A stretch of DNA of 64,000 bases from NCBI GenBank assembly GCA_951406725.2, contig OX597825.1, forward strand, positions 5,952,001 to 6,016,000, read 5' to 3'. The stretch is from Octopus vulgaris. Its lineage: Eukaryota. The notes beneath the pieces are model-generated. The model had not been told where the DNA came from. It worked only from the letters and a program-made list of their open reading frames with translations, and searched no databases. A program made the position numbers and the translations under genes. Positions 17,490-52,877 of this stretch are shown here, piece by piece; the first letter of the stretch is position 1; each line of letters begins with the position of its first letter.

Positions 17490-18310
17490 AATGGACTGCA
17501 GGCGGATCACATGCAGACCTGAAACTGAACGGAAACGGATGGCAAGAGGACTGCATACGGACTAAAAAAATGGACTGCTGACGAACACGGAAGCGGAGCA
17601 CAGGCAGACCACAGGTGGACTACAGGCAGACCACAGGCGGACCACAAGTAGACCACAGGTGGACTACAGGCTTACCACAGGCGGATCACAGGCAGACCTC
17701 AAACTGAACAGAAACGGATAGCAAGAGGACTACATAGAGACTAAAAAATGGACTACTGACGAACAACGGATACGGACCACAGGCTTACTACAGGTGGACC
17801 ACAGGTAGGCCGCAGGCGGACTACATGCAGACTAAAATCAATCTTGAGATGAACAACTGATGAACCAGAAACGGACTACAGATAGACATCAGGGTTGCTA
17901 CAGACCGAAAATAAACAAACCACAGACGGGCAACAGATGGACCACAGACGAGTAACAGGCACGACACAGATGAACAACAGACGAACTGAAGCAGTATACA
18001 GATGGACTACAAATAAACAAAAGTCAACTAAGAGACGGGCAACAAACAGACCACAGACGAATAGCAGATGCAGTAAGGGTAAATTATAGGTTGAATGCAA
18101 ATGGAGTACAGACGAATGACAGTATGGCAACAGGCGGATTACAAGTGGATTACAGATTAACTGCAAACGGAATGCTGGCAGACGATGAACTGACAACATT
18201 TGAAACATACAAGGACCACAGATTGAGTAGATAGGCTGCAGAGAGATGACAACCAAATGACAGAGAAACTATACACGGAGAAACAGATTACAAACGAAAT
18301 ACAAGCGGAA
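17490..18310. repeat. Degenerate 11-bp minisatellite (GACCACAGGCG-like) with an internal about 90-bp direct duplication
   Basis: Units such as ACCACAGGTGG and ACTACAGGCAG. 17501-17590 closely matches 17681-17770. Confidence 0.8.
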
Positions 18311-20036: not shown

Positions 20037-20385
20037 ATGCGTTCCAACGAATTTTTCCACCGTCTAGGCTTTAAAAAAAGAAGCCCTTATTGTTGGTTTC
20101 CTTGTCCTGTTTTTATTCTTTATGTGTTCTGTTTTTTTCTTCATTTTTATTGCTTTTACGTCCTGTTCTTGTTACTTTTTTTACCCCTCTGCAAAACAAT
20201 TTTATTTAATTCATTTTGCAGGAAGGATTGCTTCGGCCGGATCGTGTTCTGCCCTTACCTTCGAAACACGCATTGAGTCGAAACAGGGGCAGCTGATGAA
20301 GGGGAATATTCCTTGTATTGTTTGTCTTGTACTCTGTTTTTTCGTTGTTAAAAAAAGTCCGTTATTTGTGGTGTCCTGTACTCAT
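20037..20385 (+). mobile_element. (TA)n-flanked short element carrying a non-circularly permuted hammerhead
   Basis: Shares the ACCC(C)TCTGC.AAA...TTT.GCAGGAAGG hairpin, the ribozyme motif and the GTGTCCTGTACTCAT terminus with 52327-52650 (-). Confidence 0.7.
20243..20304 (+). ncRNA. Candidate non-circularly permuted hammerhead ribozyme (site-GAAA-CUGA order)
   Basis: CGTGT-T-CTGCCCTT-ac-CTTC-GAAA-CACG-cattgagtcgaaac-AGGGGCAG-CTGATGA-A-GGGG. Stem III is CGTGT/ACACG, stem I is CTGCCCTT/AGGGGCAG (8 bp) and stem II is GGGG/CTTC. Confidence 0.72.
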
Positions 20386-20469
20386 ATATATATATATGCA
20401 TGTATATATACATATAGATGTAGGTATGTACATATATGTATGTATGCATATGTTTTATTTATTAAATTG

Positions 20470-20512
<43 letters not shown>

Positions 20513-52202: not shown

Positions 52203-52249
<47 letters not shown>

Positions 52250-52457
52250 TAAATAAAATAAAACATATGCATATATATAAACATATTTGTACGTACCTAC
52301 CTCTACATGTACATATACACGCATATATGAGTACAGGACACCAAAAGGACGTCGAACACAATGAGAGCCGACAACATAGACACAAACCAAAGGAACTGGA
52401 CATTTATTTAAAAACAGCAAAAAAATAGAGTACAGGACAATTAACACAAAGAAAAAA

Positions 52458-52520
52458 CCCTTTCTTCAGTCGTTAAAGATTTCATCTACTCTACGTTTCG
52501 AAGGATAAAAGCGAGACGTA
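52458..52520 (-). ncRNA. Candidate non-circularly permuted hammerhead ribozyme (site-GAAA-CUGA order)
   Basis: Minus strand: TACGT-C-TCGCT-tttat-CCTTC-GAAA-CGTA-(17 nt)-AACGA-CTGAAGA-AAGGG. Stem III is TACGT/ACGTA, stem I is TCGcT/AaCGA and stem II is AAGG/CCTT. Confidence 0.62.
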
Positions 52521-52651
52521 TCTTCGACAAGAAAACTTTCCTTCCTGCGAAAAGCAAATCAATTAAAATTCTGAGATCTTTTCGCAGAGGGGTAAAAAAT
52601 GGTAAAAACAGGACAGTAACGACAGTACAAATTGTAAACAGTAAAGGACAT

Positions 52652-52877
52652 AAACAATTGCAGCGTGGAAGGTGTTTGTAAGCCATTCAAGAAACACACA
52701 AAAGCCGTTCGATTCACTTCAACATTTAAGTTTAATTTGTCAAAATATTTTCGTCGCTTTAAGACCGCGACCTGTTCACTGACAAAAATCCGTGCAGCAC
52801 AGAATGTTGAAGTGAATCGAACGGCTTTTGTGTGTTTCTTAAATGGCTTGCAAACAACTTCCACGCTGCAATTGTTT
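52652..52877. repeat. Inverted repeat, 75-bp arms, enclosing a hammerhead variant
   Basis: 52652-52726 vs 52803-52877, about 3 mismatches. Confidence 0.92.
52736..52786 (-). ncRNA. Type I hammerhead variant with G3-C8 swapped core
   Basis: Minus strand: TTTGTCA-GTGAACA-G-GTCGC-ggtcttaaa-GCGAC-GAAA-A-ta-T-T-T-TGACAAA. Stem I is 7 bp, stem II is 5 bp and stem III is the palindrome AAATATTT. Confidence 0.68.

Follow-up and report, generated by a model that had tools for sequence, protein, structure and literature searches.

Two stretches of Octopus vulgaris DNA, 20037-20385 (+) and 52327-52650 (-) of the 64,000-nucleotide region analysed here (GCA_951406725.2, contig OX597825.1, positions 5,952,001 to 6,016,000; hereafter the window), each carry a hairpin upstream of a permuted hammerhead motif, and they raise the question of what kind of element this is and what the hairpin does in it. 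We assign a probability of about 0.7 to the following reading: both stretches are 5'-truncated copies of a repeat of about 0.85–0.9 kb, and the hairpin is a predicted four-way-junction arm that completes a non-circularly permuted hammerhead.

Copies in the window and the repeat to which they belong

An earlier note on this DNA had described, in both stretches and in this order, a T-rich leader, a hairpin, the sequence GAAGG, a permuted ribozyme and the motif GTGTCCTGTACTCAT. Both copies are present at the positions and on the strands given above, with all parts in that order (ribozyme 16 and 19 nt further on, respectively), and they are homologous (65% identity over 457 alignment columns, E 3e-40). 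Features are listed below by window position.

20037..20473 (+): copy 1, subfamily F1; 5'-truncated monomer of a non-autonomous Penelope-like unit of about 0.9 kb
20184..20188 (+): segment a (CCCCT); predicted partner, AGGGG directly 3' of CUGAUGA (junction helix X)
20189..20221 (+): covarying hairpin; predicted four-way-junction arm
20222..20226 (+): segment c (GAAGG); predicted pairing with CCTTC 5' of GAAA, predicted G10.1 donor for G10.1-C11.1
20232..20237 (+): segment d; pairs with 20277-20282, lengthening stem III past an internal loop
20243..20256 (+): hammerhead block S; stem III strand, predicted cleavage after U20248, stem I strand at 20249-20256
20258..20270 (+): hammerhead block G; CCTTC, GAAA at 20263-20266, stem III strand
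20285..20304 (+): hammerhead block C; stem I strand, CTGATGA at 20293-20299, AGGGG
20371..20397 (+): internal conserved motif and internal TA run, not the terminus
20398..20473 (+): conserved 3' block to the usual 3' end, abutting (TA)n; its end is the putative start of reverse transcription
52247..52650 (-): copy 2, subfamily F2; 5'-truncated monomer, real 3' end near 52247 with (TA)n beyond it
52540..52592 (-): copy 2 segment a (52592-52588), hairpin (52587-52545) and segment c (52544-52540)
52458..52520 (-): copy 2 ribozyme blocks S, G and C; predicted cleavage after C52515
5682..5847 (-): third element, family Y; same layout, cut off inside the hairpin loop, predicted cleavage after C5806

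Copy 1 has an internal deletion of about 45 nt near 20363 and is followed by (TA)n reaching 20509; the pairing of its segment a is seen in the minimum-free-energy fold of a 137-nt stretch. The ribozyme of copy 2 is probably impaired, because two substitutions relative to its family weaken stem I and helix X. Family Y, to which the third element belongs, has 2,699 candidates genome-wide, and its ribozymes show no sequence likeness to those of the F copies in the window. Two low-complexity open frames overlap the copies and neither has a Pfam match, in keeping with the absence of an ORF reported before. Rfam over the window gave nothing at gathering score, and no Rfam hammerhead match at E<=1 was obtained in four loci.

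Two other repeats were seen in the window. A MITE-like palindromic element of about 225 bp (52652-52877; arms of 75 nt, 96% complementary) adjoins the 5' end of copy 2, and similar sequence is present in L097 and L136; a 179-bp tandem repeat in two copies, with internal periodicity of 11/22/44 bp, lies at 17499-17832 (+).

The genome-wide search (2.8 Gb) that the earlier note had proposed gave 5,391 exact matches to the core pattern (control, 1) and 4,229 to the GTGTCCTGTACTCAT motif (control, 0). Each window copy has at least 39 relatives at 95–99% identity, drawn from more than 2,000 candidates; among sampled F-type copies, the best match was at least 95% for 53 of 99. The first 100 places of the motif on contig 1, all retrieved, served as the unbiased sample. 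In 83 of these copies by a loose test, and 74 by a strict one, the conserved block continues past GTGTCCTGTACTCAT, and both window copies run about 80–90 nt beyond it, to about 20473 and about 52247. The motif is for these reasons not the terminus that it had been taken for, and the TA run after it is internal. Nor does the T-rich leader mark the start of the element, being what truncation has left of the unit of about 0.85–0.9 kb.

The tandem arrangement suggested for checking was found, as head-to-tail units of 836, 839 and 898 nt, which have no open frames common to the subfamilies. After the conserved 3' block most sampled copies end in (TA)n; 7 of 100 stop after an optional tail of about 40–45 nt, 7 of 100 continue into the beginning of a following unit, and 6 of 100 have an inverted piece upstream (abutting in four). 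(TA)n was present at 30 of 49 well-defined 5' junctions and at 53 of 76 scorable 3' ends, against 11–12% of random window positions. Truncation at the 5' side is variable, with ends scattered over the whole unit; 3' ends are preferred ones.

Unit, ends, tandems and (TA)n bias support the proposal of a non-autonomous, ribozyme-bearing, (TA)n-targeting Penelope-like element, and the repeat is likely a protein-less retroelement of this kind. Support is lacking for the other possibility raised before, a solo pseudo-LTR: units are joined head-to-tail, and no sequence-sharing parent was found among the elements examined. A DNA transposon or MITE is excluded, since 5' ends are scattered and units stand head-to-tail; terminal inverted repeats and two fixed ends are absent. 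Such an origin and a hairpin without covariation were the two grounds that the note had named against its own reading, and neither is borne out: the terminal inverted repeats are lacking and the hairpin covaries.

Inverted copies at three loci (L063, L336, L406) have their turn-round point at or just after the predicted cut, which suggests fold-back of the cDNA end. At another (L013, about 1075-1310, +), a donor-like word closes the F1 tail, and a branch-like word and pyrimidine tract follow about 200 nt on. The case for an intron in the unit is weak: of the six units checked, F1, F2 and one more carry donor-like and branch-like words, and these are not conserved throughout the subfamilies.

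The hairpin, its flanks and stem II

The same layout is present in four sequence-distinct clades, F, X, Y and Naiad type. Families X and Y were found by a descriptor scan and further searches; the Naiad-type family was found with a motif taken from the Octopus Naiad consensus in the literature (355 matches genome-wide, control 0). Strands follow the order S-G-C (cleavage-site block, GAAA block, CUGANGA block), and the core (CUGANGA, GAAA, the A15.1-U16.1 pair, H17 not G) is complete in all nine family majorities. When 48 unbiased copies with a full ribozyme are compared with their family majorities, mismatch amounts to 0.6% in the core (3/480), 1.3% in segment c, 2.5% in the partner of c, 5–6% in segment a and its partner, and 8.2% elsewhere, the last value including subfamily differences.

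The hairpins of the two window copies fold better than shuffles (z -2.6 and -3.3). Covariation of the stem, as claimed before, was recovered in an alignment of 16 copies picked across the F and X subfamilies, with double-sided changes at five of seven basal pairs; a U-rich loop recurs across all four clades. The 3' end of the hairpin is not a splice acceptor, because its AG is not conserved, being swapped for GG, with compensation, in some subfamilies.

Both flanks of the hairpin have a partner next to the core. The 5 nt on its 3' side (c) are complementary to the strand 5' of GAAA, and the nucleotides on its 5' side (a) to the strand 3' of CUGANGA. Across nine multi-copy families, c is flush on the hairpin in eight and forms five or six pairs with the pre-GAAA strand in eight, and the first of these pairs is G-C in all nine majorities; Y variant L048 gives only three contiguous pairs. 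Five single copies (L322, L326, L328, L344, L348), obtained with a pattern that selects a changed pre-GAAA strand, were left out of this comparison. Letters of c and its partner differ by clade (GAAGG/CCTTC, GAGCA/TGCTC, GACACC/GGTGTC, GGCTG/CAGCC), and cross-clade swaps form only one or two of five pairs; this pairing test was anchored by script, because a MAFFT alignment over the four clades lost helix register. Segment a forms five to seven flush pairs in six of nine families, and its pairing is shifted or broken in F7, Naiad and main Y; flush pairing is restored with changed letters in two Y variants (by eye), one of them L048, whose c is poor.

A model of seven helices (stem I, stem III, d/g, two hairpin helices, two helices from the hairpin flanks) was scored on the 16-copy alignment; 93.7% of 573 cells are paired and 20 of 36 pairs are changed on both sides. 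These two values were reached by none of 500 shuffles, in a test where related sequences can beat shuffles without structure, and slid controls were 34–49% paired; on the measure 'further pair types' the alignment did not exceed the shuffles (482 of 500). Stems I and III are 96–97% paired, with double-sided changes at three of five and four of five pairs, respectively, and the extra helix d/g lengthens stem III; the X6 majority has a break in stem III close to the core. In the same alignment, covariation of c comes mostly from two X-type rows; the a/II helix has double-sided change at one of five pairs, and it pairs imperfectly in the majority sequences of Naiad and main Y. In the Naiad and Y ribozymes (L172, L361), the internal loop between stem III and d/g has tandem G-A/A-G beside a 3-nt bulge and resembles a kink-turn by eye, a likeness that is unclear in F1/F2.

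From these pairings we infer that a four-way junction of core arm, c helix, hairpin and a helix replaces stem II in the modelled fold, with c giving G10.1. The chief rival, which we regard as unlikely, keeps to the usual type-SGC hammerhead and gives it a short direct stem II; the hairpin with its two flanks would then be an OFF switch, hiding both strands of stem II until the RNA is refolded by a protein or by the reverse transcriptase. Without a bulge, direct stem II has no pairs in any of the nine families; with a one-nucleotide bulge it has 4 bp (two of them G-U) in F/X, that is, in seven of nine families, 2 bp in Naiad and 0 bp in Y. Within the F/X copies alone this 4-bp helix (two G-U, one bulged A) is 95% paired, so that the case for the junction rests on Naiad and family Y. 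A switch would also suit the reading through of the cut site in 53 of 100 copies, and the Anolis Penelope hammerhead was cleaved only once the element's protein was added (PMC11167929). Against it stand, besides Naiad and Y, the Euprymna Naiad, in which direct stem II is impossible because both strands carry the same five letters (by eye), and the G-C nature of the first c pair in every clade, which is like the usual 10.1-11.1 pair and which mere sequestering would not need. Helix-energy sums favor the junction by 8–14 kcal/mol, loop costs being ignored, and are given no weight here.

A lower chance still is given to the suggestion of the earlier note that the hairpin is mainly a recognition element of the reverse transcriptase, independent of the ribozyme. 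The U-rich loop in all four clades would agree with it, as would the presence of the hairpin in both the repeat and the Naiad 3' UTR. A role within the ribozyme is nevertheless better supported, because both flanks, at 0-nt spacing from the hairpin, are complementary, with covariation, to the core-flanking strands in four clades; furthermore, 47 of 100 inserted copies end before the hairpin, which fits initiation about 250 nt downstream, and the sole Penelope-like element tested in vitro needed RNA around the initiation site (PMC11167929, in part). The hairpin is likely one structural arm inside the predicted ribozyme fold rather than only a protein handle, and its loop could also bind protein.

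Genomic 5' ends, Naiads and possible helpers

The 5' ends of 100 3'-anchored copies were mapped against a 153-copy library (median of the best five hits; values of L386, L409 and L469 set by hand, none of them in the two bins compared). Coordinates are relative to the G of GAAA, with the predicted cut at -14/-15. Eighteen ends fall in -15..-1, none in -30..-16 and three in -90..-16 (100 copies; binomial p ~1.5e-5). Ends occur at 0.019 per nt after the cut, 0.002–0.004 downstream and at most 0.001 just upstream; in a scan of -300..+120, whose resolution is poor on the far side of about -150, the steepest step is at -15, the predicted site. Twelve of the 18 clustered ends lie at -15..-6, and the hairpin base near -41 has one end nearby. 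Single copies of the Naiad (L187) and Y (L058) families, from samples that are not unbiased, begin at or next to the predicted cut. Four runs presumed to be RNA consist of contigs and show neither transcript ends nor telling joints.

Read against the fold model, this pattern suggests that the ribozyme probably cuts itself. A catalytically dead hammerhead derivative, with a 5'-end peak caused by polymerase stalling at the knot, is very improbable, as the core mismatch is only 3 in 480 positions and covariation is seen in stems I and III. Stalling would also explain the ends poorly: the strand that holds 12 of the 18 has been released by the time the polymerase gets there, and the strong hairpin base has a single end nearby. 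The 53 copies that reach through the cut site imply that uncut, multimeric or circular templates are used as well.

In the reading that we prefer, with the hairpin as a junction arm, the junction would stand in for stem II, upstream segment c would supply the conserved G10.1, and some of the transcripts would cut themselves. The (TA)n target would be nicked in trans by an RT/GIY-YIG protein of the Penelope class, and reverse transcription would start internally on the RNA, at either of two sites about 40–45 nt apart; the two preferred 3' ends fit such internal initiation. On a cleaved template the reverse transcriptase would run off at the cut and leave the 5'-end peak; on an uncleaved, multimeric or circular template it would read through, giving partial tandems. 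We also lean, with somewhat less assurance, toward a wider claim: that this is a natural active topology beyond the six known permutations (split block C, G10.1 from a fourth segment, junction and hairpin in place of stem II), that it is the overlooked ribozyme of a Naiad branch extending from cnidarians to cephalopods and of thousands of non-coding parasites, and that, going by the genomic 5' ends, it cuts templates in vivo.

The link to Naiads is one of fold. Naiad-type ribozymes lie downstream of decayed Naiad RT remnants in L485, L488, L490 and L507; in L512, CxC and DKA motifs are found further upstream of the Naiad RT and ribozyme layout. Ribozyme-like motifs stand behind 7 of the top 30 Naiad RT hits and behind 4 (plus one chance-like) of 20 weaker RT hits, all of Naiad type. 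No intact Naiad frame was present among 116 Naiad RT hits (longest open frame, 292 aa), a decay that contrasts with the 53 of 99 F-type copies having a best match of at least 95%. By eye, the same layout is present in the published Naiad consensuses of Octopus, Euprymna and Clytia, and in Euprymna and one Clytia Naiad the order is a-hairpin-c-d-S-G-g-C (PMC8557442, part of the supplement). The F families and the Naiad 3' UTR have a common fold and no common sequence, and the Naiad-type ORF (N-terminal GIY-YIG, CxC, DKA, C-terminal RT) is absent from the families of the window. In the same part of that supplement, the 3' ends of three nematode Naiads were read by eye as type-CSG non-circular hammerheads with direct stem II; different Naiad branches may therefore use different permutations.

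For the search for a parent, three GIY-YIG remnants from flanks of copies were used as queries; the loci inspected were 30, 6 of 20, and 20 for the three families, and one of six long loci. F units showed no sequence likeness to autonomous elements in the three C-terminal GIY-YIG families and one Naiad 3' UTR examined. Of the three families, a young one with a 781-aa RT/GIY-YIG frame has a degenerate type I-like core, a second young Penelope-like family has a canonical-order hammerhead, and an old GIY-YIG family has neither the layout nor common sequence. The first of these (L121:2626-4968, G000:C6) has its 781-aa RT/GIY-YIG frame intact in many copies, a second reading frame upstream and, on the 3' side, a hammerhead-like motif whose core is degenerate. 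The second (L132-L137, e.g. G000:C4:56742379-56742675) is very young, with 99% identical GIY-YIG, frames of up to 1,312 aa and a canonical-order hammerhead-like motif, and is a candidate trans-acting helper. Young long-frame Penelope-like families could act in trans on F units. A metagenome scan matched at least 118 stretches; the full layout was present in none of the 80 examined, and the matches were taken as chance.

If the preferred reading is true, non-circularly permuted ribozymes, so far a matter of environmental sequences without assignment, also exist in an animal genome and in very many copies there; the assumption of an uninterruptible CUGAnGA block, on which current hammerhead descriptors all rely, is broken; and the seeming lack of a ribozyme in Naiads has a concrete answer. 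The pile-up of 5' ends at the predicted cut makes it testable whether Penelope hammerheads cut transposition templates in vivo.

Comparison with known systems

Type SGC is one of six hammerhead permutations named by block order (PMC10085705). The octopus elements have the same S-G-C order, full core, non-G cleavage site and pseudoknotted stems I/III as type-SGC HRIMA-1 and its variants. In type SGC, the strand that follows CUGAnGA pairs directly with the one that precedes GAAA to make stem II, and an extra helix joins the distal sides of stems I and II; in the octopus elements, by contrast, those two strands pair with separate upstream segments flanking a hairpin, and the extra helix lengthens stem III. 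The uninterrupted block C and direct stem II of type SGC are thus not found here, a distinction that is ambiguous for the F types alone. The same source takes block C to be uninterruptible, knows of no alignment with more than one or two inserted nucleotides between CUGAnGA and its stems, the basis on which the six permutations were built, and reports non-circular hammerheads outside the genomes of known organisms, save one bacterial candidate. It was the only source on non-circular hammerheads in the literature searched, which extended neither to its supplements nor to those of a 2026 preprint; no account of the junction topology or of a permuted hammerhead in Naiads was found in that literature, mostly without subscription journals.

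Naiads were described as having no canonical hammerhead and instead 'half cores', with a second half 35–50 nt away; families with them include Octopus vulgaris, labelled 'HHR_half_core', and Euprymna (PMC8557442). The 3' UTR of the Octopus Naiad has the same RNA layout as the families of the window, which differ in having no RT/GIY-YIG frame. Naiads and the octopus repeat have in common (TA)n preference, 5' truncation, partial tandems and inverted 5' pieces; the tail is 30–40 nt in Naiads versus about 40–45 nt in the repeat. Variable 5' truncation, tandems, inverted pieces, a tail and microsatellite bias are given as Penelope-like hallmarks (PMC8557442, section 6).

Metazoan non-LTR retrozymes (PMC7229834; bioRxiv 10.64898/2026.07.22.740005) are likewise non-coding, hammerhead-bearing, arranged head-to-tail and proposed to be Penelope-derived. 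They have type I hammerheads in tandem repeats of 150–450 bp and documented circular RNA, whereas the octopus repeat has S-G-C order, units of 836–898 nt and mostly single 5'-truncated copies; it does not carry a type I hammerhead in each 150–450-bp unit.

In Anolis Poseidon (PMC11167929), the optional tail is accounted for by two internal sites of initiation, and targets are AT-rich; like these two initiation sites, the octopus repeat has two preferred 3' ends about 40–45 nt apart. Poseidon has a canonical hammerhead, and no reads ending at its cut site were reported, whereas the genomic 5' ends of the octopus repeat cluster at the predicted cut.
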